DNA of 61,628 nucleotides, filler included, from Globobulimina sp. (taxonomy: Eukaryota), in assembly GCA_003354225.1 (NCBI GenBank). It is 10 parts of 10 records of this genome, joined end to end, with 100 filler letters (N's around TTAATTAATTAA, not from the genome) between each part and the next. Parts side by side here need not be neighbours in the genome. Positions count along the whole stretch, not along the records: positions 12,398 to 18,493 come from PIVH01000363.1; 9 more parts are not named here. The stretch is one strand, 5' to 3'. The notes below the pieces were generated by a model. That model saw nothing but the letters and a program-made list of their open reading frames with translations, was not told the origin of the DNA and did no database searches. The position numbers and the translations under genes are program-made. Of the stretch, positions 1,447 through 57,836 are shown piece by piece; the stretch's first letter is position 1, and every line of letters begins with the position of its first letter.

Positions 1447-3353
1447 TCAACAATCACAACAATAATCATCACAATAACAGTCGCAGTCACCACAAAAACA
1501 TTGAAGACACTTTTGAAGACAAAAAAAGAGTGCAGCAAATATTGCAACAATAATAAATATCGGCAAGCCAATGAGAATAAACGCAGCAACGATTAATATT
1601 CGATTTAAGCATTTTGGAAAACAAGAAGGACAGCGACAAAATCGTGCAGTATACTGCCCGCCGGGACATCCAAATATATTATACCATCTATAATGCTTTG
1701 AACTGTATTCACCTCTGCAAATCCAGCAAAATTCATAGCGACACGCTCGACATGTCATATGATTGCAACCTTGCGACTTTTCAATCCGTATCCTGCATTT
1801 TGGACATTTCTGCACATCCTTATTCAACGCCCATTTGGTGAATCCGAGGTCTATGTTTTGGTTACAACCAACAAAATATCCATGCCATGGCTGTCCACAA
1901 TTATAGCAAATGAGAGATGTGCATTTGGGACATTTTAATTTTCTGCGAAATTGACTTCCAAACATATATCCATCACAATCCGGTTTACAACAAAATCGCG
2001 CGTTCTCTTTTAACATAATCAATCGTTGTTTTTTGAATTTTAAAAATTTATCTTTTAACGCAGAATCGCCTAAAAATGATAGAATCTCCGCTTCGTTAAT
2101 CTGGCGATGGCAATTTGGATCAATGCAGCAGAGCTTCAATACATCGCCGTCCACTGTTTTTATCCGATAATGTTCGCGTAAACAATCAAAGCAATAATTA
2201 TGACCACATTCTGCTGAATTAAATTCTGACTCATTCTTAATTATAGAGTGTCAAATGGAGATATTATGTAATATCACGCAAGAATAATCAGATTGTGCTG
2301 TGAATACATTTCATATTTGCACTTGACAAATACCTTCAAATCAAAGCAGACCAGACATTGTTTTACATTCTCGTATTTATCCAACTTATCAGCAAATAGA
2401 TCATCATATTTAAATTGAAACATATCATTTCGTTTCATTTCAGTCTGATCGATATCAATTTTCATATCTATCAAATGTAAATATTCATCGTCATTTTCAG
2501 TATAAATATTGATCTTTTTTGCATTCTCATCAATTAGATGTTGTTTGTATAACATACCACAGACACCACACAACTCGCTATCATACAGTAAAGGAACAAA
2601 GCGATGATATTGGATATTCTCATCATTGTTTAATATAAATTCAACCGCAGCTTCGATAGATTCTGCATTGGTACATATTAAGGCTGCTTCCGCTTTATCT
2701 CTCCATCCCATTTCGCTTAGACGTACATAAAAATCGCGATATGCGTTGGAGGTCGCTTCCATTGTTAATGGCGTGCTGTACAATGGCATTTTCATCAATA
2801 TATCGCGAGCCGGTACCACAGTTCGGTGGTTGTCTTGGTTTAAATGATAATCATTGGCAGTGAACGTTTCTAGTGACGGTTCGAGCACACTCAAACTCAG
2901 ACTCAATTCCTGTGTAATGTTTTTTTGATAAATATGTGAACGGATTGATATATATTAAAGTTTAACTGATCCAAAATCAAATGAATTTTTTGGTCGGGTT
3001 CTTTGCGGCGGTAAATTTAAAGGATGAAATGAAGTGATTGTTAGGTCTTTTTTTTGAGGTACTAAGGGATCACTATTTAAATTAAATGATAATGATTGGG
3101 ACTTTAATAATGAGTTTGATGATAATAATGACAATGAATGGTACGCGTTGGTATGATGATCGTGGAAAAGTAATGGCTGATGATTGTTGCGGCGGTTTCT
3201 TCGATGTATTTTGTAGCACGGACAGCATTTACAGAGATAACAGCATAGTGATATTGTCACACATAACAAGACAAATAATGCGACGCTTGCTGATATCCAG
3301 TCGATGACAGTAAATGCTTCGAAAAAGGAAATAACGACATGCCAAAGGGACAT
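1447..3353 (-). CDS. RBR (RING-IBR-RING) E3 ubiquitin ligase with UBA-like segment and C-terminal TM helix, multi-exon
   Basis: IBR and RING2 patterns (CPKCRIRIEKSQGCNHMTCRACRYEFCWIC); RING1 split by an intron near 2240-2320; UBA-like LSEMGW..AEAAL..IEAAVEFI; the 2955-3461 ORF probably supplies the first exon (inferred). Confidence 0.8.
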
Positions 3354-6099: not shown

Positions 6100-6199
6100 N
6101 NNNNNNNNNNNNNNNNNNNNNNNNNNNNNNNNNNNNNNNNNNNTTAATTAATTAANNNNNNNNNNNNNNNNNNNNNNNNNNNNNNNNNNNNNNNNNNNN
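6100..6199. other. Artificial contig linker (N44-TTAATTAATTAA-N44); also at 12298, 18494, 24681, 30848, 37013, 43176, 49329 and 55480
   Basis: Identical 100-nt spacer with stops in all six frames; flanking contigs decrease steadily from 6099 to 6049 bp. Confidence 0.98.
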
Positions 6200-6424
6200 G
6201 AACATGTTTCTGTTTCCCTATCAAACCGCTGTCCCAACTGGCCGGAAATGTGTTTTATTAAGGACTTATTTTGGGGCGAAGAGGACGAAGTTGTTCAATT
6301 TCATCCGAAAAAATCCATGTATGTAAATTATCACCCCTATTGTTTGCATTTATGGCGCCCGGTTGCCATCATAATCAAGACGCCGCCGTCCTGGATGGTC
6401 GGGCCGGTGATCGAGGCGCAATAA
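6200..6424 (+). CDS. Conserved phage protein (DUF7694-like), 5'-truncated; not in the ORF track
   Basis: Frame from 6200 reads EHVSVSLSNRCPNWPEMCFIKDLFWGEEDEVVQFHPKKSMYVNYHPYCLHLWRP, a pattern typical of a widespread phage family. Confidence 0.75.
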   Translation, partial: EHVSVSLSNRCPNWPEMCFIKDLFWGEEDEVVQFHPKKSMYVNYHPYCLHLWRPVAIIIKTPPSWMVGPVIEAQ

Positions 6425-6548
6425 AAAAACCGCTTGCGGTGCCCGTGCCGCTGGTTTACAAAAATAAGGCGGGGCGAAGCTTGAACGCTACTCAGCGTCA
6501 ACTTGTTGATTTTGTGTATTTGTTCCTTTCAGGGTTTCGCCCCCACCT

Positions 6549-6589
6549 AAAAACCCCGCCTTGGCCTACCCAGCCCGGCGGGGTTTTTT
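6549..6589. terminator. Bidirectional intrinsic terminator
   Basis: AAAAACCCCGCC-loop-GGCGGGGTTTTTT. Confidence 0.75.
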
Positions 6590-6611
6590 ATTGGTTCGCC
6601 GCTTACAACAT

Positions 6612-6641
6612 TTGACAAACTATAATGCACGTCCTTATGGT
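6612..6641 (+). promoter_or_regulatory. Sigma70-like promoter for the 6672 gene cluster
   Basis: TTGACA-18 nt-TATGGT upstream of RBS AGGGGA and ATG 6672. Confidence 0.5.
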
Positions 6642-6671
6642 ATCAATTCAACTTAATGCTAGGGGAACAAG

Positions 6672-6965
6672 ATGAGATACACAGAAGAACAAGCAAATAA
6701 ATTAGAGTTACCAGAAGAATTAACAAAGCAATTAAAATTCGGGCGCAAGTTTGCAGGCGGCATGAGCCTTAAAGTATTAGACATAATAAAAACCTCCAAT
6801 ATACCGCTATCGTTAAACGATTTAGTCATTGAAATGTATAAACGTCATAATCAAATTTCCCCGCGCGGCAGTGTGCAAAGTGCCGTTTATAAATTAAAAA
6901 AAGACAAGCTTGTCGATAGCAATATGTACGGTGAATGGGAAACGGTAAAAACGAAAACCAAATAA
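6672..6965 (+). CDS. Small winged-helix-like DNA-binding protein
   Basis: RBS; VLDIIK..PLSLNDL...SVQSAVYKLKKDKLV...GEW pattern. Confidence 0.6.
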   Translation: MRYTEEQANKLELPEELTKQLKFGRKFAGGMSLKVLDIIKTSNIPLSLNDLVIEMYKRHNQISPRGSVQSAVYKLKKDKLVDSNMYGEWETVKTKTK

Positions 6966-6992
6966 CAACCGGTGTATTGAAAGGCACGCGGT

Positions 6993-7334
6993 ATGTCAGA
7001 GCCGGATTTTGCTAAAAAAAAATTGGAAACTGTCCAACTCCACATTGCTTCTTTGGAATTGCTGGTTGATCTTCAAAAAGACCAGATTGCGCACTTGGAA
7101 AAGATGAATAACCTTTTGAACAAAAGCAACCAGGAAAATTGGGCAAAGCTGATTTTCCTGCATGATAAAACTGATTATGTTTTATATACCTGCTTAAGCA
7201 TCGCAATTTTTTGCATATTTTTGTTTAATAAAGAGGTTGCCGCCTGGATGACGGGGGCTTTTTGTTACCTCTTTGCCAAGGAAATCATGCTACTGGTCAA
7301 AAAAGTTTTCCCAAAAAAGCAAAAAGATATATAA
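6993..7334 (+). CDS. Hypothetical membrane protein (coiled coil plus 2 TM)
   Basis: ORF within co-oriented cluster; two hydrophobic stretches. Confidence 0.6.
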   Translation: MSEPDFAKKKLETVQLHIASLELLVDLQKDQIAHLEKMNNLLNKSNQENWAKLIFLHDKTDYVLYTCLSIAIFCIFLFNKEVAAWMTGAFCYLFAKEIMLLVKKVFPKKQKDI

Positions 7335-7356
7335 TCGGCGATGAAAGGAACACACA

Positions 7357-7623
7357 ATGAAATTCATACCCTTAATATTAATCATGCTTGCACTGGCAAA
7401 TTGCACGTCAACACAGATGACAAAATTTGGTAATGGCCTGCAAGCATTCGGTGACGGTGTAAACAGATATCAGCCGAATAACGAGCGGTTTAAAGAGATA
7501 CAGGCATATAACAGCCAACAGAGAATAATACACCAGAACAGCCAGATATTAGACAATCAAAGAAGAATGCAAATTCAGTCGGATATGGAAAAGATTAAAA
7601 AGACATACAATCTCAGATATTGA
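7357..7623 (+). CDS. Putative lipoprotein
   Basis: RBS AAGGA; signal peptide ending in lipobox-like LANC. Confidence 0.65.
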   Translation: MKFIPLILIMLALANCTSTQMTKFGNGLQAFGDGVNRYQPNNERFKEIQAYNSQQRIIHQNSQILDNQRRMQIQSDMEKIKKTYNLRY

Positions 7624-7912
7624 TAGACGAAAGGCGTGCAAGATGCCCTTAAAATTTCGACATATCAAAACAACAAGCCGCAAACGATTTTAAAGATTTT
7701 ATGGCGCATAATCCGGGCGCCATGACTTACGACGTATCAAAAAAGAAATATGTGTCGAATGAAAAAAATGATTAAAAGAATTATTGATTTTCATAAAAAA
7801 CATGACGCGGTTATCACTCTTTGCCAGAGCGCCGCGTTATTTGCCATCGTTGCGGCCAGCCTTTACCAATTGGAAAGGCTCACTGCTTTAAAATGCCTGC
7901 CAGGGGGATAAA

Positions 7913-8446
7913 ATGAAAACAAAAACGCGTTCGTCTAATAGTACAAATATTGGAAATGCTGGTGAGCATTTGATTATGGCGGAATTACTTGCTAGGGGGT
8001 GTCATTCTTTCATGGCTGACCGTGGAAATCCCGCGTTTGATATTGCAGCCATATTAAACGACAAAAGACAAGTGAAAATCCGTTGTAAAACATGTAGTAC
8101 AAACAGAACATTTCAATATAGTGCTAAAAAATCTGGTGATATATTTTTGGACTTTGATATCGAGGATAACACTGATTTTGTTGCGTTAATTGCTCCTGAA
8201 AAAGGTCAACCATTTACGAGCATAACGTCTCAAATTTGGATTTTACCAACTAAAATAATGAATACTAACCTTTTGCAAATGAACAAAGAATATTATGCAA
8301 CAAATAAGCGTGACGGTACGCCACGAAAACAACAAAATCAAAGCTGGTTTACAATGCGTCTTGACGGTCCTGCCAATTCATCACCCTTAAATGGTTGGTC
8401 TGAAAAACTAGAACAGTGGTGCGACAATTGGAATTTCAAGTTTTAA
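7913..8446 (+). CDS. PD-(D/E)XK-family endonuclease
   Basis: GNAGEHLIMAELLARG ... FD ... KIRCKT, the helix1-E / D / xK arrangement of restriction-like nucleases; RBS GGGGG. Confidence 0.7.
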   Translation: MKTKTRSSNSTNIGNAGEHLIMAELLARGCHSFMADRGNPAFDIAAILNDKRQVKIRCKTCSTNRTFQYSAKKSGDIFLDFDIEDNTDFVALIAPEKGQPFTSITSQIWILPTKIMNTNLLQMNKEYYATNKRDGTPRKQQNQSWFTMRLDGPANSSPLNGWSEKLEQWCDNWNFKF

Positions 8447-8502
8447 GCCATATTCTAATAAAACTAATTTTCCATAAGATAAATTATGCGCGAAAACAGC
8501 AT

Positions 8503-8541
8503 AAAAAAACCGGCCTGGGTAGAGCCAGAACCGGTTTTTTC
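8503..8541. terminator. Bidirectional intrinsic terminator between the convergent nuclease and methyltransferase genes
   Basis: AAAAAAACCGG-loop-CCGGTTTTTTT. Confidence 0.7.
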
Positions 8542-8567
8542 AATCATCAAGTAAATGCACCCCCACC

Positions 8568-9290
8568 CTACCCGCGTCCGTGCTGGTTGTCCACAGGAAA
8601 AACCAATTCGTCCTGTTTCAACTTTCTAGGGGGTTCAACAAATAAATCCGGCTGCTTGTAGGCGTCCTCGATGCGCTTACAGGCTATCTCAAAATAATGC
8701 GGGTCCAGCTCTATCCCGATGAATTTGCGGCCTAGCTTGGCGCATGCAACGCCTGTTGTGCCCGATCCCATGAATGGGTCTAGGATTGTTCCTGTGTTTT
8801 TTGGTAGTTTTTGGATACACCATTTCATAACTTCATAAGGCTTTTGGGTTGGATGGACTCGCTTTTCTCTCTTTCCAATCAGGCCGTTAAATTCATAGGT
8901 AAGAAGTTTTACAGATTTGCGCTCTATATTTGTCCATACCAACTCGCAATCGCTAAAGGTTGGCATTGTGTTTTTTTTATCCCAAACAAACCAATGTTTA
9001 CCAACTGGTAATAGGTCAGTAAAATAATTACCACCAAAAATAATTGCATTGTCAGATATAGATATTATTAAATCAAATGTATCCTTACATGGTCTTTCAC
9101 TATCCCATTCACCGGGGTATTGTTTACGCGCGATAGGGGCACCAAAGCCACCAAAGCCCTCAAAGCCCTTATCCTGTTTAATACCATAAGGAGGATCTGT
9201 AACCACAGCATCCACCTTGCCGAGCGTTGGCATGATTTCCAGGCAATCCCCAAGGTATAGAGTACAATCGCCAATAATAACCGGGTTCAT
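8568..9290 (-). CDS. DNA N6-adenine/N4-cytosine methyltransferase, beta class (phage type)
   Basis: LYLGDCL, motif IV DPPY, HPTQKP, then motif I DPFMGSGTTG and GIELD. Confidence 0.93.
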   Translation of the reverse strand: MNPVIIGDCTLYLGDCLEIMPTLGKVDAVVTDPPYGIKQDKGFEGFGGFGAPIARKQYPGEWDSERPCKDTFDLIISISDNAIIFGGNYFTDLLPVGKHWFVWDKKNTMPTFSDCELVWTNIERKSVKLLTYEFNGLIGKREKRVHPTQKPYEVMKWCIQKLPKNTGTILDPFMGSGTTGVACAKLGRKFIGIELDPHYFEIACKRIEDAYKQPDLFVEPPRKLKQDELVFPVDNQHGRG

Positions 9291-9685
9291 TATTTTGCCG
9301 CCCCTGCCCTACCCGCGCCCGCCGTGGTTGTCTACAGAAAAAAAGCGCCGTCACTAACCGGCGCTTTTTCCCTACCTTGACCAGGGAACTCGCAATTTCC
9401 TGATACAAAAGCATACCATAAAAACCAATTGTGGTAATATAAGTTTTATGTAATATATTATTACAATGGAACATGTCAGCAACTTATTCAACGATTGCCG
9501 TTTGTGCGGCGGTGAAAAAATTGTATATTTTCCATTGGATGCCTGCCCGGTATGCGCCTGGCTCTCAGAGGTGCAATACCAGAATGGTCTACAGGGACGG
9601 AATGACGAGGTTTTTGATTGGTTACCCCCTAGCTTTATCGGGCCGCGTTGTTCCCTACCCCGTGTAAATTGGGTAGTACAAGATT

Positions 9686-9868
9686 ATGAAGGTAAACCAT
9701 AAAAACCCCTTTCTCAAAGCGACTTTTACGACGGCCCGAATTGCCGTTGTTAAGGCAAGCCTTAAAATCCCCTTTCGCAAAACGTGCTTAACGCTGGCCC
9801 TGGTTGCCGTTAGCCTTGGCTTATGGACGGGTTTTTTAATGGGGCTTCTATATATTTTCATGAAGTAA
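9686..9868 (+). CDS. Small single-TM hypothetical protein
   Basis: 60-aa ORF with hydrophobic C-terminus. Confidence 0.35.
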   Translation: MKVNHKNPFLKATFTTARIAVVKASLKIPFRKTCLTLALVAVSLGLWTGFLMGLLYIFMK

Positions 9869-9879
9869 ATATATATATA

Positions 9880-10012
9880 ACATAGCTATTTATCATAGAT
9901 ATATTACTTAGCTATATATCTTAATAAACAACCTATCTATTTAAACAATATATAAATGTTTGCTATATAGCTTTGATGGCTATATAATATATATAGCTAT
10001 GTAATATAGCTT
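9880..10012. repeat. AT-rich array of (A)TAGCTA(T)-like palindromic repeats upstream of parA; putative centromere/operator
   Basis: About six TAGCTA/TGCTAT/GGCTAT copies (near 9882, 9909, 9961, 9978, 9993, 10006) directly before the parA RBS. Confidence 0.55.
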
Positions 10013-10030
10013 ACTTAAATAGGGGGTTTT

Positions 10031-10666
10031 ATGTTTATTATAAGTTGCTTGTCGCAAAAGGGTGGTGTTGGCAAAACAACGCTTGTTGCGCATTTATCCG
10101 GCTTTCTTGCACAGCAAGAGGGGAAAATCCTGATTATTGATTTAGACCCACAACAAACCTTGCGCGAATGGTGGGACACCAGAGAAGCCACAAATATAAC
10201 GTTTGCCGAAGCGAATTTTGATGACTTGCAGGCGACCATTAACACCGCGCGCGGCGAAAAATTCGATTATGTATTTATTGACACGCCGCCGTCGGTCTTT
10301 TCCGAAAGCAAAAAAGCGGCGGACGTTGCCGATTTTGTCATTATGCCGACCAGCCCCAAAATATTTGACCTGCGGGCGCTTGCCAGTACTGTCAAAATCG
10401 TGCGTGAAGCGGGCACGCGCGGGCTTGTCATCCTCAACCGATGTAAACCACCGGTAAACGGCCAGGCGGCGGCCAGCGTTGCCGAGGCGCGCGCGGCGCT
10501 TGCCGTCTATGAAATGGATATATCTGATAAATACGTATGCGAACGGGTGGCATTTTCAGATAGCGTTTTACACGGCCAGACAGTGGGCGAATTTGAGCCA
10601 CGCGGCAAAGCGGCCCGCGAAATTTCCGATCTTATGCAAAGAATTGAAAAGGTGATTACATGTTAA
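10031..10666 (+). CDS. parA: ParA/ParF Walker-type partition ATPase (type Ib)
   Basis: KGGVGKTT, IDLDPQ, FIDTPP; short protein without an N-terminal HTH. Confidence 0.92.
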   Translation: MFIISCLSQKGGVGKTTLVAHLSGFLAQQEGKILIIDLDPQQTLREWWDTREATNITFAEANFDDLQATINTARGEKFDYVFIDTPPSVFSESKKAADVADFVIMPTSPKIFDLRALASTVKIVREAGTRGLVILNRCKPPVNGQAAASVAEARAALAVYEMDISDKYVCERVAFSDSVLHGQTVGEFEPRGKAAREISDLMQRIEKVITC

Positions 10667-10893
10667 ATAAGGCCGAGAAAAAAAAATCAATGCTGAAAAG
10701 CTCCGTTAAAAAACCGCTGCCCGTTGAACGCAAAGCAGACACGCCCGAACCAGTGATTAAAACCGTGCTGGTCAAATTGCCCTATGCCTTATGGGAAGAA
10801 ATGCGCCACACGGCACTTGAACAGAAAACCACCGGGCAAAATTTGCTTGTTGACGGGCTTAAAAGCGAACTTAAAAAACACCGGAAAGGGTAG
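10660..10893 (+). CDS. ParG-like ribbon-helix-helix centromere-binding protein
   Basis: Overlaps the parA stop; flexible N-tail then KTVLVKLPYALWEEMRHTALEQKTTGQNLLVDGL (RHH pattern). Confidence 0.75.
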   Translation: MLNKAEKKKSMLKSSVKKPLPVERKADTPEPVIKTVLVKLPYALWEEMRHTALEQKTTGQNLLVDGLKSELKKHRKG

Positions 10894-11078
10894 GGGGCGC
10901 CGATGGGGGATAGGATAATATTTGTTATTGCCGCAATCTGCATTGCGTTTACCATCTATTTAAAGATTTCGGGTAAGGATGCCAATATACCGTATTCGGA
11001 TTATGACTACGAAATTAGAAGACGGTAAAATTAGGTGAATGTTTATTTAGATACTATCAACAATATTTGGAGAAAAAA

Positions 11079-11336
11079 ATGTCAATCGTAAATAAAATAG
11101 AAAGAATTTCGCTGTCTGGCGGGATTATTGGTCTTCTCACTACAAACCCAAGGAAAGCACTAGAGGATACAATTAATAAATATAATAAAGTTGGATTTAA
11201 AGTGGTTCACTTTGCGGAACATAAAACAACAAACATGTTAGTCATTATAATTCAATTGGTAGTTTTAATGCTCACCTTGGGACTATGGACGTTTGGAGCC
11301 GGTTACATGGTTCTGTTTGAAAAAGAAACTGAATAA
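11079..11336 (+). CDS. DUF4177-like small membrane-associated protein
   Basis: LEDTINKYNKVGFKVV and YMVLFEKE pattern; RBS GGAG. Confidence 0.55.
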   Translation: MSIVNKIERISLSGGIIGLLTTNPRKALEDTINKYNKVGFKVVHFAEHKTTNMLVIIIQLVVLMLTLGLWTFGAGYMVLFEKETE

Positions 11337-11418
11337 CGCACCTCTTTTGCAAGCCTGATATTCCCCTGTCTGTTCCTGTATATAGACAAGGGTATTAACA
11401 AACACAGAAGAAAATAAC

Positions 11419-11736
11419 ATGATTAAGCTCTACATGACCAGCATCCCGCAAGTACAACATTTGGTAAATTATGCCGAACTATTCCCGCAATTGTTTGACT
11501 TAAAACAGCCGTGGTATGAAATCCACCTTCACCAGAACCAGACTTATGATAGTTTTTGTCATGGCTTGCGAAGTAAAAAACGTAAACCGCTCACTGATAA
11601 CGCCTTGGCCGAACTAATCACGCTGGTGGCAACGGGCCGGTTTTCAATGAATGTTGAGAAGGCGGCCTATGTTATGCCGGGTTGGCCAAACTTAAAACCG
11701 CCGACAATAACCATTTGTGCGGACGCGGAAAAATGA
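11419..11736 (+). CDS. Hypothetical phage protein
   Basis: 105-aa ORF with ATGA overlap into the next gene. Confidence 0.55.
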   Translation: MIKLYMTSIPQVQHLVNYAELFPQLFDLKQPWYEIHLHQNQTYDSFCHGLRSKKRKPLTDNALAELITLVATGRFSMNVEKAAYVMPGWPNLKPPTITICADAEK

Positions 11737-12134
11737 GCGGGATACGTAAAATCTTTTGCACTGGTTGCGCATGTACCGTTAAGGCCAGGCTTGCGGATGG
11801 GTCCGAGATTTATCCGCGCCGCCGCGATTTGCACAAGTTGCCCTTTTGGATTTGCAATACATGCGGGAATTTTGTGGGCTGTCACCACAAGACCAAAGAT
11901 AGAACGCGGCCTCTTGGCTGCATTCCAACGCCTGAAATCAAGAACGCTCGACAGCATATTCATAGGATACTTGATCCTATATGGCGGTTGAAGAAAATGA
12001 AGCGGTCGGCGTTGTATGCGCGTATTTCTGAACAGATAGGCCGGGATTTTCACACCGCCGAAATTGACAGTGTTGAAAATGGCCGGGATATTTACCGGAT
12101 TGTTCGAGAAATAAGCAAGGAAGTAGGATTATGA
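11733..12134 (+). CDS. Phage zinc-finger protein (DUF3268-like)
   Basis: CxxC...GSEIYP...FWICxxCGNFVGCH...PLG...ILDPIW...HTAE. Confidence 0.8.
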   Translation: MSGIRKIFCTGCACTVKARLADGSEIYPRRRDLHKLPFWICNTCGNFVGCHHKTKDRTRPLGCIPTPEIKNARQHIHRILDPIWRLKKMKRSALYARISEQIGRDFHTAEIDSVENGRDIYRIVREISKEVGL

Positions 12135-12297
12135 AATTTCGGGAACATCGCGGAAGCCTTGCGGAATCAATGAAAACCGTTTTTGAATTTAATACACCTT
12201 TCGAATTGCTACAGCATATTAACGATGTTATGTGGCTGAATAATCCGATAACAGATATCAAAGCGGAACCTTACAGCGGCGAAGATGACCGCATTGG
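12131..12297 (+). CDS. Phage hypothetical protein, truncated
   Basis: MKFREHRGSLAESMKTV; ATGA-coupled to the upstream gene. Confidence 0.6.
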
Positions 12298-12397
12298 NNN
12301 NNNNNNNNNNNNNNNNNNNNNNNNNNNNNNNNNNNNNNNNNTTAATTAATTAANNNNNNNNNNNNNNNNNNNNNNNNNNNNNNNNNNNNNNNNNNNN

Positions 12398-12516
12398 AAT
12401 TATGTGTTTTGTGGAACTAAAGGGACAAAACACAAGTTCTGTAGGAAAACTAACTAAGCAGTCCAGAAAAGCGTTTCTGGAAACACCACATAATATTACA
12501 TAATTATGACGTCATC
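12398..12516 (+). repeat. 119-bp exact direct repeat, copy 1 (copy 2 at 18375-18493)
   Basis: AATTATGTGTTTTGTGG...ATGACGTCATC is identical at both contig ends. Confidence 0.95.
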
Positions 12517-12614
12517 ACATTACATAATCACATCACATTTCACATCCCCTTCTACCTTCACAATCTTACAATAAAATTTTTTTAGGATACGCGCTTTCGC
12601 AAATAGTAAATCCA

Positions 12615-13274
12615 ATGAATGTAAGATTATTCAGGAAAAGGAAAAGAAAGATAAACGAAGTCGAAGGACTAGACGTTTTCGAAAAGATAATCAAAAAGAA
12701 AACCCTCAAAGCCCTTAGTCGACATAAGCCCTTACGGCAAACAAGCAGACAAACTAAATTTGCTGATTTCGAGCAGATAAAAGAGAAAATAAATTCAATT
12801 GAAATGGATAAAAAAGAAGCGATATTAAATACAAATGAGGCAATCAATACGAGAAATAAGATGGTATTGAACACAATGAACGATCGAAAATTAAATTGTT
12901 TAAGAAAGATGAATTGCAGCGATGTAGTCGAATTACAGGATTTGATCGAAAAAGAAGAAGAAAAAACAAAAAATGCATTAAACGATTTAAAAACGATCGC
13001 AAAAAGAACAAAAATCTCGAAATTAACCGAGGAATTAAGTTACGACGATTTGGTGCAAAAATTAGCAAAGGACAATGATATGAAAGGTTTAGTTTACGCA
13101 ATGGCAAAAAACGCAGAATTACGAGCAAAAGATGCCATGGCCGAGATCGAAGAAGTCGACGCAATGCAGCGAGATATGGAAAAAATCAATACGGCAAATA
13201 TCGAATTGCGACGAAATTTAGAGAAGGAAGCATTGGATGCGGCGAATAACAGTTCAGCCGGGAACCAAGTATGA
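12615..13274 (+). CDS. Retroelement ORF0: basic N-terminus plus coiled coil; probable first exon of gag (donor at 13269)
   Basis: 219-aa ORF; NLS-like RKRKRK; ends CAA|GTATGA. Confidence 0.75.
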   Translation: MNVRLFRKRKRKINEVEGLDVFEKIIKKKTLKALSRHKPLRQTSRQTKFADFEQIKEKINSIEMDKKEAILNTNEAINTRNKMVLNTMNDRKLNCLRKMNCSDVVELQDLIEKEEEKTKNALNDLKTIAKRTKISKLTEELSYDDLVQKLAKDNDMKGLVYAMAKNAELRAKDAMAEIEEVDAMQRDMEKINTANIELRRNLEKEALDAANNSSAGNQV

Positions 13275-13556
13275 TTTCTATACACTTTCCTAACTATAAA
13301 TATCTATAACTTGCACTTGTCAGAAACAAAATTTTCATTGTTTCTGTGCGAATTTCCGTGTTGACTGAAGGCCTTTACGTCAGAGCGACGTACACAGAGA
13401 AGGCAGAAGAGAGCGATATTGAGCATCAAAAGTCTGATCGCACGGAATTCAGACAAAAAAGCGGGGTTTAAAGGAATTTACACTACGACCCACGCAGTGG
13501 TTTGATCAGCATTTTAGTACGGCAATACATTGCCAAATGTATCCTAATATACATAG

Positions 13557-14525
13557 TTGGGAAAAAGCGAGGTGCAGGACATCATTGTATCGGCGACAAA
13601 GGTGGCAGCAAAGGAGATGGCTAAAGAGAGAGATTTAGCATCGAATGCAATTGATTTAGATGGAATTGGAGCAAATTTAGAAGAATTGAAGAAGCAAAAC
13701 ATCCTAAAACTAGTAAAAGCGCAGAAAGAGAAAGCTTTGGAGACGGTGACAATAAATTGGTTGAATGAGAAGCCATTTGGAGAGAATGTAGCAAATATTT
13801 GCGCGATGAGACATGACTTGGATAAGAAATCCAAGCGGAAGAGAGAGAAAAAGATGGATTTTAATTTGAAGCATTTCCAAGAAATGTATTTGGTTTTGAG
13901 AGCGGTCATGGATAAGAAAAGCAGTGATTTATTAATCAGAGAGGCAAATATATTGGAAACTATCCAATCTGTCGATGAGTTATCGGATTTGAAAGCGGAT
14001 CAATTATTGTATACCGCCAAAGTGTTATATTGTTTGGTGGATCATTATAAAAATAATATCATCGAACCAATGGATATATTGATGATGCATTACATTTTAG
14101 ACCATCGATCAGCGCCAGCCACGGCTCTGATGGCTTTAGAACAATTTATAAAGAAACGGAATTTGAAAACGAGTGGATTGGGAGTTTTAGAGAGTTTGGG
14201 AGTAAATGAGTTGAAAGTAGACAAAATCTTGGAGCAAATTAACATTTTAAAGAATTTGAATGAGAAAAATGTGAGCTTTGCAACCGTGGCAACATCGGGA
14301 ACAAAGAAAAAGAGACCGAGATGCCCGGAAGGTAACAATTGCGTAGTTTTTCAACATCCGGACGCAAGATGTAATAATTGGCATCCATTGGATCCAAATA
14401 TATATTGGAGAAGGAATACTGGACAGAGTTTTAATAACAATCAGCAAGGACGAGGAGGATACGCCAACAGAGGCGGAAACCAAAGAGGCAGAGGAGGAGC
14501 AAACAATAATTGGAATAGATTTTAA
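13557..14525 (+). CDS. Gag-like protein with CCCH-type zinc finger and RGG tail
   Basis: CPEGNNCVVFQHPDARCNNWH then GRGGYANRGGNQRGRGG; frame opens directly after acceptor CATAG (13556); lies before pol. Confidence 0.75.
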   Translation: MGKSEVQDIIVSATKVAAKEMAKERDLASNAIDLDGIGANLEELKKQNILKLVKAQKEKALETVTINWLNEKPFGENVANICAMRHDLDKKSKRKREKKMDFNLKHFQEMYLVLRAVMDKKSSDLLIREANILETIQSVDELSDLKADQLLYTAKVLYCLVDHYKNNIIEPMDILMMHYILDHRSAPATALMALEQFIKKRNLKTSGLGVLESLGVNELKVDKILEQINILKNLNEKNVSFATVATSGTKKKRPRCPEGNNCVVFQHPDARCNNWHPLDPNIYWRRNTGQSFNNNQQGRGGYANRGGNQRGRGGANNNWNRF

Positions 14526-14567
14526 CCAATAATAATACAAAGAATATAGGGAAAAATTTGATTTTAA

Positions 14568-16556
14568 ATGCAACGAAATCTTGCATTATATTTATATAAT
14601 TTAAATTCAAATAATCACTTGTTTTTCTTTCTTTTTACAACACAGAAATCGCGCGAAAGAAAATTCAAAGCCACTGACTCAGCTTTGGAAAAAGACCCGG
14701 TCATAAAAGCGTTTCTAGAAAAATGGAAAGAAGAAAAACCGTCAGAAGAACCGCCAAAGTGGCCGTTAAATGCGAAATTATGGAAAACGTTATTGAAAGA
14801 TAACGAGTGCTCGGACAAGAGCGAGTTTCTGAGGCAGCTAAAGGAGGGAATGGACCTCACAAAAAACAAAGAGATAGAATGCGATCAAGGGAAAAAGTCA
14901 TATAAAATGACATTGGAAGAGTGGCGTTTCGTATGCGAGAAAATTGACGACTACCGAAGCGAAGAAAAAAACTGTGTCTGGGGAGCTTTCACAGAAACAG
15001 ATATAAAGAAGAATAAAAGGTTAGAAGGGCATAGAATTATGCCACATTTTGTAGCACATAAAGTGAGAGAAGACGGCACCACAAAGATGCGAGTCGTAAC
15101 AGACGCATCGAGCGCTGAGCCAGGGGGCAAATCTTTCAATGATAACGTTGAAAAAGACGAATCAAACCTAAAATATACTCACATTTATGAGATAATCGCA
15201 ATGATAGTCGCTTGCAATTTAATATGGCTTGTTATGGCAGACGCAGTCAATGCCTTTAACAGAGTGCCAATAAGCAATAAATACATAAAATACTTCGGAA
15301 TCCAAGTATCGGGATTCGTGTTTTATTGGACGTGTGTGGTATTTGGGGGCTCTTCAAGTTGTAGAGTCTATTCATGGTTCGCGGCATATGTGGTATGGAT
15401 AATAATATATCACAACAAAAGAATATTCATAATAAATAAAGTAATAGTTTTGAAGAATTATTTAGATGATTTTATAGCAGGGCATCCAACATATTATGGA
15501 GCCTGGCTACAATACTACGCATTGCTGACTTGGTTCGCCTTCTTGGGAATACCAACACAGATAAAAAAGATGCAAATCCCAACAAGAGTCTTGAAATACA
15601 TTGGATATACAATAAACACATTAGATAGAACCCTAATGATGCCAACCGACAAACTATTAAAAATATGCATATTAGGAAATGAAATAATAAATTTGATTGA
15701 TAATAAGCAGAAAATAAAAGTGAAACTAATCCAATCTTTTGATGGTACCACACGTTTCGCATCGCCTATTTATTATTATTTTGCGCCATTTTTAAGGAAT
15801 ATGGAGGAAGCCATACGGGGAAAAGATAAAAATGAGAAGGTTTGGGGCAATGCAGAGATAAAACAAGACATAGAATTGATAATAAACACAATAAAAGATA
15901 CAAACAGAAATAAAATATCTTGGGAATGGCTACTTTATCCTAAGGACAAAGGAGACATTGTAGTTGAAACCGACGCGTCGGGCAAATTTGGAATGGGTGG
16001 ATTAGAGAGAAAAAGCGGAGGGATCTGTTACATGGTAAGATACCAAGATATCATTGGTTGGGACTACGAGAATGAACCAGACATTGTATGGAAGGAATTG
16101 TGCGCAGTTTATATCATAAATAAGTTGCAAAGCAAAGATTGGGCCAAGAAGGCCATTTTACTAAAAGTCGACAACAAAGCTGTCGAACACATACTAATTA
16201 AGAAAAAATCCTGTTTTGAGAGGAAAGATTTGCAAATTTTGGTTAGGAAGATTTGCAAAGAAGCCATGAACTCAAATTTCTATGAATGGGTCAATTGGAT
16301 ATCAACAAAAGACAACATTTACGCCGATGGACTTTCAAGAGGAGATTGGACAATTTTGGGCAAGTTAACATACGATGTAATTGATAAAAGCGAAGAAGCA
16401 TTGATCCATGCCCAAGAAGCTTGGAATATGTACAAAAGCGCCAGGAAGCGAATGATACGAAATAATAATGACAATAAAAAATGCAGATGCAAAAATAAAA
16501 TAATATGCGATGACCAACAGCTATATTCAAAATGGAAAAAAACATGTTATTGTTAA
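14568..16556 (+). CDS. Reverse transcriptase-RNase H (DIRS-type); coding part probably starts at acceptor 14646
   Basis: RT: ADAVNAFNRVPI, VFGGSSSC, NYLDDF; RNase H: ETDASG, KELCAV, KVDNKAV, NIYADGLSR. Confidence 0.93.
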   Translation: MQRNLALYLYNLNSNNHLFFFLFTTQKSRERKFKATDSALEKDPVIKAFLEKWKEEKPSEEPPKWPLNAKLWKTLLKDNECSDKSEFLRQLKEGMDLTKNKEIECDQGKKSYKMTLEEWRFVCEKIDDYRSEEKNCVWGAFTETDIKKNKRLEGHRIMPHFVAHKVREDGTTKMRVVTDASSAEPGGKSFNDNVEKDESNLKYTHIYEIIAMIVACNLIWLVMADAVNAFNRVPISNKYIKYFGIQVSGFVFYWTCVVFGGSSSCRVYSWFAAYVVWIIIYHNKRIFIINKVIVLKNYLDDFIAGHPTYYGAWLQYYALLTWFAFLGIPTQIKKMQIPTRVLKYIGYTINTLDRTLMMPTDKLLKICILGNEIINLIDNKQKIKVKLIQSFDGTTRFASPIYYYFAPFLRNMEEAIRGKDKNEKVWGNAEIKQDIELIINTIKDTNRNKISWEWLLYPKDKGDIVVETDASGKFGMGGLERKSGGICYMVRYQDIIGWDYENEPDIVWKELCAVYIINKLQSKDWAKKAILLKVDNKAVEHILIKKKSCFERKDLQILVRKICKEAMNSNFYEWVNWISTKDNIYADGLSRGDWTILGKLTYDVIDKSEEALIHAQEAWNMYKSARKRMIRNNNDNKKCRCKNKIICDDQQLYSKWKKTCYC

Positions 16557-16701
16557 CACATTTTGACATAAATTCGAGTAATAAATAGGATACTTTCCTT
16601 GGAACGTTTTTCCGTTTCTGTATATTATTGACAAATAATTGTTAGTTTGGTTTGCAACAAATTGTTTGTTTGTTTGTTAGTTTCTTTTTTTGAAAGAAAA
16701 G

Positions 16702-16871
16702 GTGTTTGGGTCTGATCACCGCCGCAATGAACTTTGTCGACAACACAGCCATTGTTGGCCGACAGTGACTGACGTAAATTATATTTGGTGAAACGTGTTT
16801 GGGTCTGATCACCGCCGCAATGAACTGTGTCGATAACACAGCCATTGTTGGCCGACAGTGACTGACGTAAA
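16702..16871. repeat. Tandem duplication of a 77-bp GC-rich hairpin-forming unit (16702-16778, 16795-16871)
   Basis: Copies differ at 2 positions, period 93 bp, in otherwise AT-rich pol-YR intergenic DNA. Confidence 0.9.
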
Positions 16872-17153
16872 AAAAATGTGCAAACAAAACAAAACACAGT
16901 AATTCCATACATTATTTGGGGCAATTTTAGTAGTATTACTTTGTTCTTTGCGATTCGGATTTGCGTTTGAACGTAGTATCTTCTGATTGCAAATACCAAT
17001 AAATAACGCAAATACCAATAAAACCAACATAACACAAATTTGCTTCCACGACGGTGACATTGAAAAAACAGTTTTTGAAAAAGCAAAGTTAATTTTTTAC
17101 TGTTTATACAAACTAAGATAAGAAAAAGAGCGAAAACAAAGAACGAAAGCAAT

Positions 17154-18173
17154 TTGCATTGGATCCCAATGAAATCAATTATAGAATTGGCAGAGAAAAA
17201 ATTCAAGGGAAGAAACGCAATTCTAACGAACAAGCAATACAAAGGAACGCAGAAACACTACGAGATATTCTGCAAAACATACAATTTAAACCCATTAAAT
17301 GGCAGCGAAGAGCAAATAATCAATTTCATAATTTGGAAGCACCAATGTGCCAAAATAGGCTGGTCCGCAATGCACGGACACCTTTACGCAGTACGCGATT
17401 ATTTATTGAATAGAAATATTACAATAAAGACAAAATATGAAGACATGCAGAGATTGCATGGAATAATAAAAGAGGAAAAGAAAAAGAAGCCATCGAAAGG
17501 AAAAGACGCTTTAAAAGAGAAGGAATTGGAGCAAATGATAAAAACTATAAACACCGACAAAAAGATGACAAAGCACGACAAATATGCATGGGAAGCAATT
17601 CTGACATTGCCCTATTTTGGAATGAAAAGAATATCGGAATATGTACATAATTCGGACTTATCATTGGGTTTAAAAGTAAGGAATTTGGAATTTGAGAATG
17701 ATTTGAAAAGCAAAGAATTCCCCCAATCAAGTTATTGTATATTGAACAGAGAAAAAGGGAAAACATACCAGTTTGGTGGAGATTTATACGCAGTGTTCAT
17801 ATGCACCTGCAAAGTATCAAATTTTTGCTTTCTATGTGCAATAAAAAGATATTTAAAATGCAGACAGAAAAAGAAAGCCAATTTAGCGGAGGAAGACCTT
17901 TTTGTATTCAAAAACGGAAAAAAATTGAACAAGTATATAATGGGAAAGAAAATAAAAGATTTAGCAAAGAGAATAGGTCTAAATCCGGACAACATAGCCG
18001 GACATAGTTGGAGAAAAGGTGGAGCACAATGGGCTGTCAAGAAAAATTTGCCAGCAACAACTATTATGAAACAAGCAGATTGGAAATCATTCCAATCACT
18101 AAAAAGATACTATGACAACATTGATCGATTGGATCAAGTTGAGATTTTCAAAAGTAATTTAAAATCTATTTAA
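17154..18173 (+). CDS. Tyrosine recombinase (DIRS/Ngaro-type integrase)
   Basis: Catalytic residues: GMKRISE (R), GKT (K), GHSWRKGGA (HxxR), ADWKS (W), KRYY (Y); N-terminal core-binding helices. Confidence 0.93.
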   Translation: MHWIPMKSIIELAEKKFKGRNAILTNKQYKGTQKHYEIFCKTYNLNPLNGSEEQIINFIIWKHQCAKIGWSAMHGHLYAVRDYLLNRNITIKTKYEDMQRLHGIIKEEKKKKPSKGKDALKEKELEQMIKTINTDKKMTKHDKYAWEAILTLPYFGMKRISEYVHNSDLSLGLKVRNLEFENDLKSKEFPQSSYCILNREKGKTYQFGGDLYAVFICTCKVSNFCFLCAIKRYLKCRQKKKANLAEEDLFVFKNGKKLNKYIMGKKIKDLAKRIGLNPDNIAGHSWRKGGAQWAVKKNLPATTIMKQADWKSFQSLKRYYDNIDRLDQVEIFKSNLKSI

Positions 18174-18595
18174 AGAATATAAAACAGTAACGATTGGTTG
18201 TGAAACGTCCGGGTAACGTTTGGTATATTAAAGGTTGATATTGCGGTTCTGTAATACTTCAGAAGTACTATCCAGTACATCTGACGAACCACAATAGAAA
18301 CCTAGATATCTCCGAACCTGTCACCAACCAATCGTAGGTATCGAAAGATACCCAAACCTAAGTAAGACGAACAGAATTATGTGTTTTGTGGAACTAAAGG
18401 GACAAAACACAAGTTCTGTAGGAAAACTAACTAAGCAGTCCAGAAAAGCGTTTCTGGAAACACCACATAATATTACATAATTATGACGTCATCNNNNNNN
18501 NNNNNNNNNNNNNNNNNNNNNNNNNNNNNNNNNNNNNTTAATTAATTAANNNNNNNNNNNNNNNNNNNNNNNNNNNNNNNNNNNNNNNNNNNNTA

Positions 18596-23157: not shown

Positions 23158-23722
23158 ATGCAATCCTCCTCTAATGCAAGTCATGTTGGACAATCAGAGT
23201 CATCATATGTTGAAAATACAAATGATGGCATTGCCAGTAATTACACACCAAATAAATTAAAACCTGCAATGATGACTTTATCTGGTCATTCTTGTGTTAA
23301 ATCACCTGCAAATTTGGCACCACTTCCCATACATTCAAAGAAATCAAATCAGTTTAAAACACAAAAAGATGCTGAATATCTTGCAACTGGTTTGTGTATG
23401 ATTTAATTATATAATTACAAACTTCTCACCTTGTATATTTTCAAAAAGATGATTTTGCAGAATTTGAAGACTTCGAAGACTTTGAAGAACATGGTGATCA
23501 TAATGAGGATAATACAATTATTCATACACCACCTTCGAATATAACTGATAATAACAATAATTATCAACAACAACAACAACAACAACAACAGCAATATAAT
23601 ATAAATAATTGTTATTATGGTGGTGGTGGTGGTGGTTATAATAACAATAGTAATGACACACAGCAATTTTATCATCACTCACAATATCAACCAAATCCTA
23701 ATCAATACACTACAAATAATCC
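23158..23722 (+). CDS. 5' part of a low-complexity (Q/N/G-rich) eukaryotic gene, intron 23390-23448, cut off at a chimeric junction
   Basis: Phase-1 splice joins ...YLAT-D-DFAEFEDF...QQQQ...PNQYTTNNP, then bacterial sequence follows. Confidence 0.6.
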
Positions 23723-28504: not shown

Positions 28505-30847
28505 ATGGTTCTAAATCTGAGTCGCTTTTGGGTATATTTATCATATTTTGTTTTCATGTCTTTCTCAATGTATATGACATCTTATTTGATAGGTGCAAAC
28601 AGATCGAAAGCAATCAGCCCCCATGGAAGCAACAGGAGTTTTTCAAACTGTATCAAAATACTGCGAACAATCGTTTTATGGATTGAATTCATTGTATTTG
28701 TTATGATTTGGTCTCTGTATATAACCAAATCACAAAATGATGTGGTCAATAAACATTTATTCGACCACTCAAACTTTAAAATAACATATTTGAGAGCATA
28801 CTATTTGATTCAAATTATAGTACAAACTACAATGATCATACTGTGTATGGTGTTTTATATTGAATTTGTATTATACACTGACAATGATTGGATAACTGCA
28901 GTAAAACAAGCAAAAGAAGCAGCAATACTAAAATTAGAACATCTGTCTGACTCTACGGATGTGGATGGTTTCCCAGTTCAAAAATACAGCAAACAAAGAG
29001 CTGGTAATTATAAGCAAAAGGCTCAATCCATAATCGACGATTGTAACATTTGTAGCAGATTATGTTCATTTTCATTTTGTTTTAGAAGGATTGGTGTTGG
29101 CATTGCCAATGTTTTCACTCTGACTTGGTCTGAATTGCATGTATTATGTATGCTGTCATGTATTTATTATTTGTTATCAGCAATGTTGAGATTATATCAT
29201 TTCAATCCAATCAAAGAAGAGCATCAATTCCTATTCACAGTAAGTGATATATTGACTGCATTTGGTATAATATTACCTCCGTTGGCGTACAGTTTAAGCT
29301 TACGGTTAAAAATGATTTATGATCGAAAAGGCACTGTCTCTGATATCACACTTGCTGGCTCGCAATGGGAAACACGTAAAAACAGAGAAAGTTATTGGTA
29401 TCAATCACATGCATCATCGCAAATGTTATGTATGATTCACTTGTTTTTTTCTACAAAATATCAGTATTTGTAAATGAAACAGGTCCATTGTCCAGGCATC
29501 AAAATCTATATTGAACGATAAAACGATAAAGCTCTGGATGTTTATTACTTTTTCATTTCAGTTGTTTATATTCGTTATGGATCCTGTTTTTGCGGCGAGC
29601 AAATTCCGATATTATTTGCAATCAATGTATGATATTTGTGATCAGGATTCAACCACTTCGCAATTGCAAGTTGTGTTTATTGTACATGTGTTAATTATGC
29701 GTATTGCTGTTCCATTATTGTTACTAAACACTGTTTTTTCATTCACTCCAAAATCATCTCATTCTGCGCAAATTATGCATTACTGTTATTTTCATCATAT
29801 CATAACGCCATCGTCAATTATCCTGATTACAATGATTGCATTTGTAACAAACTATGTTCTATCATCACATCCTGTGCTCGTGACATGGATTGGCATCATA
29901 GGCAGTGTACTCCTCTCCATATGGCAAATATTTGTGTTTGTGAGTGTGCTGAGTTTGGCTGACCACGCACAGAATGATCAGGAGCAATTTTTTGGATTTG
30001 CGCAACTATCAAAGGCTTCATTATTCAATTACTTTTCGAAAGGGATTGTTTATGTTTTTCTATGGTTTGTATCGTTTGGTGCCTTGTTAGTGGCAAATAG
30101 TATATCAACAGCACAAATTATTAAGGCACATGGACAAATTCCAAGTGTTATATTTGGTACAACGTCAATGTTTTTGCTGGTTCCTCTGCAAAAAATAGCA
30201 ATTTCACCAACATATAGAAAGTTATATTAATATATTTTATCCATCAAATATAAATACTTTTGATTTTATTAAGTTATAAATAGTTATTTTGGAAGGAAGC
30301 AGAGGACAAAATATCTGGTAACTTTCCATGTTATATGTTTACTTTCAGCGCTGTTTATTGTGCAGAAATTTATTTTTGTGACAACATTTTATTATGATAT
30401 TTTGACGAATGTTGATGATATGAAAGATCCGTCATTCGCAACATCATTTTCATTGTCATTTGCTTCCATTGGATTTTTTATATGGCTTTTTGGTAAATAC
30501 TGTGGTATTTTGTACCCGATTGGACCTAAATCATTGAAGGAGAGTGGTTCCATAACGGAAATGTCGGAATTTATTGGAAATAAAAGTAGAAGGAAATCGG
30601 ATGAAAAACGAAAAGATTCGAAAATGTCATTAACTGCTTTACATAATATATATATACATACTCCATCCATAAAATTATATGATTCAAATGAAGAATATGA
30701 TGATTTAACAGCTGATAAGATTGGATATGATAAATCAAAGAAAGTACAAAAAGCGATATCTATTTCACGAGGAAAGTTGAGAAAAATGGGCGAGAATAAA
30801 CGTGAAGATTCGCATTCCATTGTATCTCCGACATATGATGCTGCAGC
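28505..30847 (+). CDS. Polytopic membrane protein, multi-exon, 3'-truncated
   Basis: Three consecutive hydrophobic ORFs separated by short AT-rich GT-AG gaps. Confidence 0.6.
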
Positions 30848-33100: not shown

Positions 33101-33208
33101 TAACTGATATCTCTGCTCTTCTAATCTTACTCTAAAACAATTATTGCATATCTAACAAATATAAAAGACATTAATAAAATACTTATATTATATGGAGAAG
33201 AAAGTAGG

Positions 33209-56214: not shown

Positions 56215-57836
56215 TCATTTTCGTAATGATTGGAAATGTGCAAACAGTGATTTTTTATCTTCATAATCAATGCATCCAAGCCTATGAATGTCATTTTTAT
56301 CCAAATCAATTAAATGATACCCTTTGATATTTTCTTTTTTCATATTTTCTTTTAGAATTTGCTCATATTTTTCAAATTTCCCGGCATCTAAATATGCGAT
56401 CCAATAAACAATATCCTGATATGCCCAATTTCTATAATTTGATGTATCATTCAGTGTTTTTCTTTTTTCGTTCTCTAACAAAACTTCATATTTTCCATGC
56501 AATTCCTTATAATCTTCGTTTATTTTTAACAATTCTTCATCTGTTTTAATAAAATTTTTATTCAATTCATCATACGCAATTTGCAATGTTCTCAATCGCT
56601 CACTTAATTTCTCGTTCTCGTTTAACAGAAAAATGTTTCCACTTTTCTCCTCATTTAATTTCTCTTCGTTTTCGACTTTCTGACAAGAATATTGCTGAAT
56701 TTGTTGTGATAATATACGCGTTTTCTTTTTTTCCTGAATCAAACACGCTTTCAATGAAGTAATAATAGTCAGATCAATTTGAGATTGCGTCTTGTTTTCA
56801 CATTTCGTTCTCGAATTTCTCTCTGAATATTTAGGCATAATATCGGATAATTTCATTTTCCAATGGCTCCCTTTATTCATTTCAAACAAATGAATATCAT
56901 TTTTGCTGTTTGCTACAGCATAATACATTGCTTTTTTAGGACATTTAATGTCTGATTTGGTCCATGTCCAATCATTTAAATCCAAAATCCATATTTCGTT
57001 AATCAGGCCGGAGATCGTTTTCCCGCCAAAAGTTATAGCCTTATTGCCATATCTTTCATTGTTAGTTACTATATAACCAAAGTAGAACCTATATGTGATA
57101 TAATATTTGAATAAGTTAACTTTATCAACATACAAAATAACATTTTATGCGGCATTGTAACATCTTTTACTTTGTGCCACTGCATATGTTTCACATTACA
57201 GATCCAAATATCTTTTAAATAGCCACCAAACATAATACTGTCATTGCCGCCTAACATTACCAATTGATTTTGCGATTCAATTTTAATTAAAGCATGGCCA
57301 TATAATGAGGTCTTTGAAGGTCTGTTGGAAATTGGATATTGCTTAAACATATGAACTGTATCATCGCTCGGATGCCATACTGAATGATAACAGTTCGTAT
57401 ATCCACCAATTGCATGCACTGAGCCATCTATATTTGACAGCAAGGCACAACCTCCAGATTCATTGCCTAATCCTTCTGGTAATCCATGCACAGTGCCTCT
57501 ATATGCTGTATGCGCTTTGGTTTTGATATCAATCTCATAAAAACAGTCACATCCAGAGATTGATGTGTTATACAGATATATTTTCGACGCACGCTCATCG
57601 ACTAATATACTATGCCGCAATGGTTCCACACCGAGGGGATATTTCCAGATTAAATACCATTTATTTTTAGACACATGATATGAATATAAACCTTCATCAT
57701 TACTTGAACTCGCAATAATGACATAATCATCTTGTAAAAATGCAGGAGCAGCAAACTTACTCATCTCCATTTGAGGATATTGCAACCATCGTAGTCCTGA
57801 TTGTTTTGGACTTTTTGGACTTTTTGGTTGTGCCAT
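56215..57836 (-). CDS. Kelch-repeat, coiled-coil and SAM domain protein (two exons)
   Basis: Kelch blades (HAIGGY, MLGGN, TFGGK..IWILDL..W); C-terminal SAM NWAYQDIVYWI...ENIKGYHL..LDKNDIHRLG. Confidence 0.82.

Follow-up and report, generated by a model that had tools for sequence, protein, structure and literature searches.

A candidate splice donor at the end of the leading open reading frame of a DIRS-order retrotransposon from Globobulimina sp.

How a retroelement expresses the reading frames that lie behind its first one is the question raised by one contig of the Globobulimina sp. assembly GCA_003354225.1. The contig (PIVH01000363.1) fills positions 12398 to 18493 of the 61,628-base stretch of DNA analysed here, which we call the window, and it is a tyrosine-recombinase retrotransposon of the order DIRS with a Ngaro/PAT-type gene order. 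Its unit of 5977 bp carries on the plus strand a leading open reading frame (ORF0), a gag-like ORF, a pol ORF for reverse transcriptase (RT) and an RNase H-like part, and an ORF for a tyrosine recombinase (YR), in that order and with spacers of 42-522 nucleotides (nt) between them. To our knowledge the translation of downstream ORFs in DIRS-order elements is unsettled. The sequence-only reading of the window had proposed shared-donor splicing, in which one donor at the end of ORF0 is joined in frame to acceptors ahead of gag, pol and YR. Comparison with relatives lent weight to the donor and to the gag and pol acceptors, and left the YR acceptor at 17117 as the weakest part of the proposal. 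That the donor at the end of ORF0 is used in frame for gag and pol at least is, in our view, possible, if somewhat short of an even chance. The complete retrovirus-like programme, in which a single ORF0 donor and three phase-0 acceptors would graft the ORF0 module onto Gag, RT/RNase H and recombinase, is tentative and rather doubtful.

ORF0 (12615 to 13274) runs from an ATG at 12615 to a TGA at 13272-13274 and encodes 219 amino acids ending in ...AGNQV. The predicted protein has a basic N-terminus (RKRKRK), a helical and charged remainder and valine as its last residue; it had no Pfam family match and no Atlas lead, and an exhaustive representative search returned one homologue only, P0019, with 52% identity over the last 80 residues. 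The candidate 5' splice site is the very end of this frame, CAA|GTATGA (13269-13274), whose GT at 13269-13270 falls on a codon boundary (phase 0). GTATGA occurs once in the 5977-nt unit, where about 2.5 occurrences are expected by composition, and that one occurrence is the ORF0 stop. A valine codon followed by a stop, and thus a GT, closes all three known ORF0s: GTA TGA in the window, GTT TAG in L001, the sole relative compared as DNA, and ...RKNKV in P0019, where the residues ahead of the final V have diverged. The L001 ORF0 ends AAA|GTTTAG, and GTTTAG is likewise unique in L001. Both hexamers also begin candidate short introns on the contigs that neighbour the element in the window. The comparison speaks for a genuine 5' splice site at the last ORF0 codon.

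If this donor were used, the full-length RNA would be translated to ORF0 only, and the last codon GTA with the following TGA would double as the 5' splice site. A fraction of transcripts would be spliced from 13268 to phase-0 acceptors, with exons beginning at 13557 (gag) and 14646 (pol) and, less certainly, at 17118 or 17142 (YR). In that case the downstream proteins would begin at the ORF0 ATG and bear its basic, helical module, which might, as the sequence-only reading had proposed, let them co-assemble; reverse transcription would use the RNA left unspliced, the way it does in retroviruses. The coordinates on which the sequence-only reading had built this scheme hold: the GT at 13269, a gag frame opening directly after CCTAATATACATAG (13556), a pol start with TTGTTTTTCTTTCTTTTT and then ACAACACAG to 14645, and a YR frame open from 17079 with CTAAG to 17117, every site in phase 0. 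They also yield the predicted junction peptides AGNQ|LGK and AGNQ|KSR. ORF0, gag, pol and YR all share one reading frame in the window (12528-18173), an arrangement with a chance of about 1 in 27 that is not found in L001 and is probably a coincidence. It makes phase 0 at every site near-automatic, and the agreement in phase within the window therefore carries little weight.

ORF0 to gag is the strongest link in the splice model. The proposed first intron (13269 to 13556, plus strand, 288 nt) contains CTAAC at 13290, CTAAT at 13544 and, on the minus strand, a cyclic-AMP response element (CRE)-like TGACGTAA at 13375-13382. The gag-like ORF (13557 to 14525, 322 codons from the frame opening) opens right behind the TAG at 13554-13556, 20 codons ahead of its first ATG at 13617. 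These codons (13557-13616) are coding-like at once, with a score matched by none of 255 stop-free spacer windows and by 3.4% of off-frame windows. A 33-codon ORF that begins at an out-of-frame ATG (13537) overlaps the gag start codon. Both observations tell against translation of gag from a start codon of its own, and the comparison favours an in-frame gag acceptor. The opening of the frame at the TAG and its coding-like, ATG-free start would also suit a more restricted arrangement, in which ORF0 and gag form one gag gene whose retained intron would be 13269-13556 in the window and 3081-3187 in L001, while pol and YR are expressed otherwise. The 107-nt candidate intron of L001, with its ACTAAC and a phase-0 CAG, would fit this arrangement, as would the usable look of the window pol and YR ATGs. 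It leaves the ATG-less pol and YR of L001 unexplained, though, the L001 gag has an ATG of its own at codon 2, and the two elements offer no homology in gag or ORF0 by which exon edges could be placed. In our view it is improbable. Gag-pol readthrough or frameshifting was ruled out by four in-frame stops between 14523 and 14568 and, in L001, by a change of frame with stops. The gag protein itself has a C-x-C-x-C-x-H-like cysteine/histidine motif and an RGG tail; it had no Pfam family match, its Atlas leads were weak (zf-CCCH/CCHC, scores up to 0.87), and none of 2434 candidate homologues was significant.

L001 provided a fair independent test of phase, since its ORFs are not all in one frame. 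Metagenome scans for relatives had given none and then this one locus, and protein scans gave none from 98 genome-contig stretches and none from 63 viral-contig stretches. L001 is a 5623-bp contig that, like the retroelement contig of the window, closes on itself by a 119-nt overlap; it carries ORF0 (ATG 2502, stop 3084-3086), gag (frame from 3113), pol (frame from 4380, first in-frame ATG at 4485) and YR (frame from 924). Identity to the window element is 33-44% in pol and 37% in YR. No similarity was detectable in ORF0 or gag, where Smith-Waterman scores stayed within those of shuffles, and exon edges are therefore not alignable there. L001 has phase-0 AGs at 3187 (gag), 4406 (pol) and 962 (YR). 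With the GT-stop of three out of three ORF0s, this bears out, for L001 and P0019, the expectation that the position and phase of donor and acceptors are conserved in relatives. In window pol, L001 pol and L001 YR alike, one AG, in phase 0, lies between the frame opening and the start of conservation. The L001 pol AG ends a 105-nt AG-free stretch, the third longest in L001 (12 of 5000 local shuffles of this region, which was picked after seeing the data, were without AG), and two of the four ACTAAC motifs of L001 lie 22-25 nt upstream of the candidate AGs of gag and YR.

The same relative has frames that lack a start codon where one would be needed. The homologous part of L001 pol begins 9 codons past the frame opening, with 35 codons between the opening and ATG 4485. 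The 26 codons upstream of this ATG match a profile of the window-group N-terminus (built from the window, P0001, P0002, P0003 and P0006) at 18.2 bits, a score that none of 2000 shuffles reached (best 12.0). L001 YR has about 70 conserved codons with no ATG before them, and the database protein P0022 begins at a TTG (990). The splice model accounts for these ATG-less ORFs, which the rival readings do not explain, and the independent check in L001 lifts the splice signals above chance.

In the window, the pol ORF (14568 to 16556) opens with an ATG, and its frame reads on through TTGTTTTTCTTTCTTTTT and ACAACACAG to 14645. This is the candidate pol acceptor (14614 to 14645, plus strand), a pyrimidine tract followed by ACACAG, from which the exon would begin at 14646, and it is at this region that similarity among pol relatives starts. 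The plus strand of the element has three separate pyrimidine-rich tracts, one of which stops 4 nt before the pol AG. The 94-nt AG-free stretch up to this AG is the second longest of 434 gaps, and 193 of 5000 local shuffles of the region, again picked after seeing the data, were without AG. The first ATG past the acceptor (14723) is out of frame, which argues against a non-coding leader being spliced to this site. Pol has 18 homologues, all on short contigs and 15 of them at 43-60% identity. Immediately ahead of the start of similarity there is a Q in four of the five pol sequences that reach upstream, possibly a read-through CAG. The comparison favours an in-frame pol acceptor, and the support for this link comes mainly from L001.

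Two further observations concern the start of pol in the relatives. L001 (at 4485), P0012 and P0015 share an M at one pol position (M-E-T-P or M-T-P) where the window group has K, and this M may be an alternative, own pol start in that subfamily. An out-of-frame ATG at 4444 lies upstream of the L001 pol ATG at 4485.

Several observations weigh against the splice model, and they bring in a different reading, in which there are no in-frame fusions and the GT at the ORF0 stop is coincidental. Each ORF would then have a separate mRNA and be read from a start codon of its own, the mRNAs being made either from promoters in the spacers or by splicing or trans-splicing of a non-coding, AUG-free leader to acceptors upstream of the ATGs. 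The open pol frame begins with its ATG, ahead of which 196 nt are free of ATG (44 of 5000 local shuffles without ATG), and this ATG looks a usable start as well. The 290 nt up to the YR ATG (17169) form the element's longest ATG-free stretch (17 of 5000 shuffles), both regions having been picked after seeing the data. These stretches end exactly at the two ATGs and resemble leaders scanned for own-ATG initiation, which are commonly marked in this way. CRE-like TGACGTMA motifs are found at four distinct sites (12507, 13375, 16770 and 16863), all in non-coding spacers, namely the terminal-repeat/leader region ahead of ORF0 (12507-12514), the ORF0-gag spacer and the pol-YR spacer, the last with two 90-nt tandem repeats (16698 to 16880, plus strand, 92% alike) that each hold one CRE-like TGACGTAA. 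Seven of the eight TGACGTMA matches in the window fall inside the retroelement contig. Their confinement to spacers makes internal promoters a live alternative, and the motifs may be internal promoters or enhancers. AG-free stretches with a closing AG also precede the ORF0 ATG by 30 nt and the YR ATG by 98 nt, and a GTAAAT stands 4 nt ahead of the ORF0 ATG.

The relatives add to these points. The longest of the 18 pol matches is at most 673 amino acids, so that a fused ORF0-pol form is not seen among them; the L001 gag has its ATG as second codon; and the P0020 recombinase begins with M near the start of conservation, at most 3 residues from the window YR ATG and the L001 TTG. The GTTTAG donor of L001 is weak by general consensus. 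The proposed introns of 288, 1377 and 3849 nt are far above the 31-71 nt of the candidate introns nearby, and support for splicing is comparative throughout, drawn from L001 as DNA and from protein matches. Translation from separate start codons does not account for the L001 pol and YR, which have no ATG before conserved coding sequence, nor for the window gag, which is coding-like ahead of its first ATG and preceded by the out-of-frame ATG at 13537; it leaves the Val-stop of all three ORF0s unexplained. With these points on either side we regard it as tentative, more doubtful than probable.

A last reading denies any functional link between the ORFs. The donor would be unused or would serve a host-sized intron of 55 nt (13269-13323, plus strand) with GTATGA, CCTAAC and GTCAG, and L001 would be a decaying copy that has lost start codons. 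The size of the nearby candidate introns agrees with this, and L001 has TTG where relatives show M or an ATG within 3 residues. The 55-nt alternative, in itself a competitor for the donor, would extend ORF0 by just 14 codons before a stop, and these score as non-coding. A decayed copy is unlikely since all four L001 ORFs are intact, and the acceptor-type signals are common to two elements that are just 33-44% identical in pol. We consider this reading very improbable.

Of the three links in the splice model that to YR is the least secure, and 17117 is the weakest site. The YR ORF (17079 to 18173, plus strand) has its first ATG at 17169. It matches Phage_integrase (E 5.4e-10, 39.8 bits against a cut-off of 27.1), and H309-x-x-R312 and Y344 are invariant in five of five aligned YR sequences. 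We considered three acceptor candidates on the plus strand. A CAG ending at 17071, which contains the first AG after 93 nt without one, lies out of frame and runs into a stop. The AAG ending at 17117 is the site in CTAAG that had been proposed; it lies in ACTAAG, similar to the ACTAAC of L001, and could serve as a branch site instead of an acceptor. The AAG at 17139-17141 is homologous to the L001 CAG at 962, BLAST pairing L001 CAG|AAT (962|963) with window AAG|AAC (17141|17142). Both AAG sites are weak by general consensus. The coding score changes from non-coding in 17079-17117 to coding in 17118-17168.

The scheme would have parallels in retroviruses. In avian leukosis virus, gag contributes its AUG and first codons in frame to the env mRNA, and foamy viruses produce Pol from an mRNA that has been spliced. 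As in retroviral splicing, there would be one 5' donor and several downstream acceptors, unspliced RNA would serve both as genome and as mRNA of the first ORF, and the start codon would come from the upstream exon. It would differ in that the proposed shared exon is a whole 218-codon ORF and not a leader or a few codons, and in that it would join Gag, Pol and recombinase alike, in an element without env and without an LTR (long terminal repeat)-integrase system. LTR retrotransposons are reported to raise Gag output by spliced subgenomic gag RNAs, in BARE (PMC3735527) and in Arabidopsis Ty1/Copia (PMC5580714). There too a single transcript reportedly yields structural and enzymatic proteins in a ratio that splicing sets, but pol is spliced out of a single ORF, whereas in the present element no downstream ORF would be reached without splicing.

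For natural splicing in DIRS-order elements we found no report in the full texts searched, which did not include subscription Ngaro/DIRS papers or supplements that may bear on the point. In the accessible part of PMC7192593, splicing in DIRS-1 concerns an artificial marker intron only, and in that of PMC3783388 the word "intron" has 0 occurrences. If the ORF0 donor is real, these elements would have evolved a retrovirus-like scheme with one donor for many acceptors, and it would be the first in which a complete protein module serves as the shared exon and is carried by all three products. This would explain the expression of non-overlapping downstream ORFs, some without start codons, in this order, and both the junctions and the junction peptides would be directly testable. 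If it is not real, the element would be unremarkable for a Ngaro/PAT-type retrotransposon apart from its additional ORF at the front.

The identity of the element itself follows from its domains and their order. All 16 aligned pol sequences match RVT_1 (best E 3.8e-14), while the window copy alone scored 26.8 bits, under the cut-off of 29.6, and the YxDD motif is present as YLDD. RNase H-type motifs (ETDAS, E510, D535 and a D587-type) were invariant by eye in the aligned pol; Pfam RT_RNaseH was weak, in 1 of 16 members (E 0.0059), and a profile search of PDB sequences gave no match. Pol terminates about 70 residues past the RNase H motifs with no further Pfam match there, and no integrase or protease family was matched by Pfam in the element. 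Markers of the Ngaro-like subgroup are the order gag, RT/RNase H, YR and the lack of a methyltransferase-like domain after RNase H. The order gag-RT/RNase H-YR, the lack of an integrase and the lack of a domain past RNase H make the contig a Ngaro/PAT-type member of the order DIRS, with groups as given in the available part of PMC6681497, an assignment made on gene order and domain content and not on an RT/RNase H tree. It shares with Ngaro-like and PAT-like elements this order, the lack of integrase and protease, and a terminal arrangement compatible with the split direct repeats (A1 ... B1 A2 B2) that the same part of PMC6681497 gives for Ngaro, PAT-like and VIPER. It differs in the extra ORF0 ahead of gag and in ORFs set apart by spacers instead of overlapping. 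We take its source to be an AT-rich microbial eukaryote.

The first 119 bases of the contig are identical to its last (12398-12516 and 18375-18493), pointing to a circularly closed assembly of a repeated unit. The terminal-repeat region (18222 to 18493 and on into 12398-12584, plus strand, boundaries inferred) is probably made of split direct repeats, B then A. In a contig of run X1, 12584 is directly joined to 18222, as the A2-B2 junction of such repeats would give. A search for sequencing runs gave three (X1-X3), all of one sample, of which X1 contains 0.94 of the words of the stretch, and no RNA run containing it. Contigs of runs X1-X3, which are of unknown kind, have joints 12444>12548, 12584>18222, 17381>17754 and 17381>18048; in these same contigs the joints 13268^13557, 13268^14646 and 13268^17118 were not seen. 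Alignment with L001 2200-2420 shows that a terminal-repeat block at about 18370-18420, including GTGGAACTAAAGGGAC, is kept in the relative. Within it about 40 nt (...ACAGAATTA..GTGTTTYGTGGAACTAAAGGGACWAAAC...) are nearly identical between window 18370-18420 (the same as 12398-12443) and L001 2290-2340, at a pol identity of only 33-44%. This block is a candidate recombination or priming site, and an X1 contig branches to L001-like sequence directly past it (18422). The 16-mer GTGGAACTAAAGGGAC was also tried as a guide to relatives: none of its 62 loci (44 genome and 18 viral) encodes one by tblastn, so these are chance matches.

Sequence around the ORF0 start has splice-like features of its own. 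The longest AG-free stretch lies just 5' of the ORF0 ATG in both elements, closing with a T-run and an AG (112 nt in the window, 12472-12585; 125 nt in L001, 2357-2483). This acceptor-like site could belong to a leader intron, mark a trans-splice site or reflect mere terminal-repeat composition. A second consensus-like donor in phase 0 follows ORF0 codon 2 (ATG AAT|GTAAGA, 12615-12626); it is not conserved in L001.

The window as a whole is composed of about ten contigs of about 6.1 kb each, joined by N44-TTAATTAATTAA-N44 linkers (pairs of 44-N runs) at 6100-6199, 12298-12397, 18494-18593 and then every ~6.1 kb, and features are therefore not readable across the joints. The neighbouring contigs are AT-rich (GC content 28-38%) and carry long eukaryotic ORFs, including Filamin with PA14, Est1, Kelch, lactate/malate dehydrogenase and Gal-3-O-sulfotransferase. 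A variant genetic code was ruled out by the lack of in-frame stops in the four long ORFs of the element and in neighbouring ORFs of 800-1300 codons, and a scan for sigma-70 promoters and terminators carries no meaning for a eukaryotic element. The candidate introns on these contigs are inferred from ORF continuity alone. They begin with GTATGT, GTATGA or GTTTAG, mostly one of the first two, and end in TAG or CAG, with one AAG. Eight of them, 31-63 nt long, were located. On the plus strand they lie at 23396-23448, 29430-29482, 60312-60365 and 60620-60650, and on the minus strand at 2910-2966, 33152-33214, 34904-34957 and 57089-57133, the last with Kelch repeats in the ORFs on both sides. The contigs at 6200-12297 are GC-richer (38-45%) and may derive from another organism.

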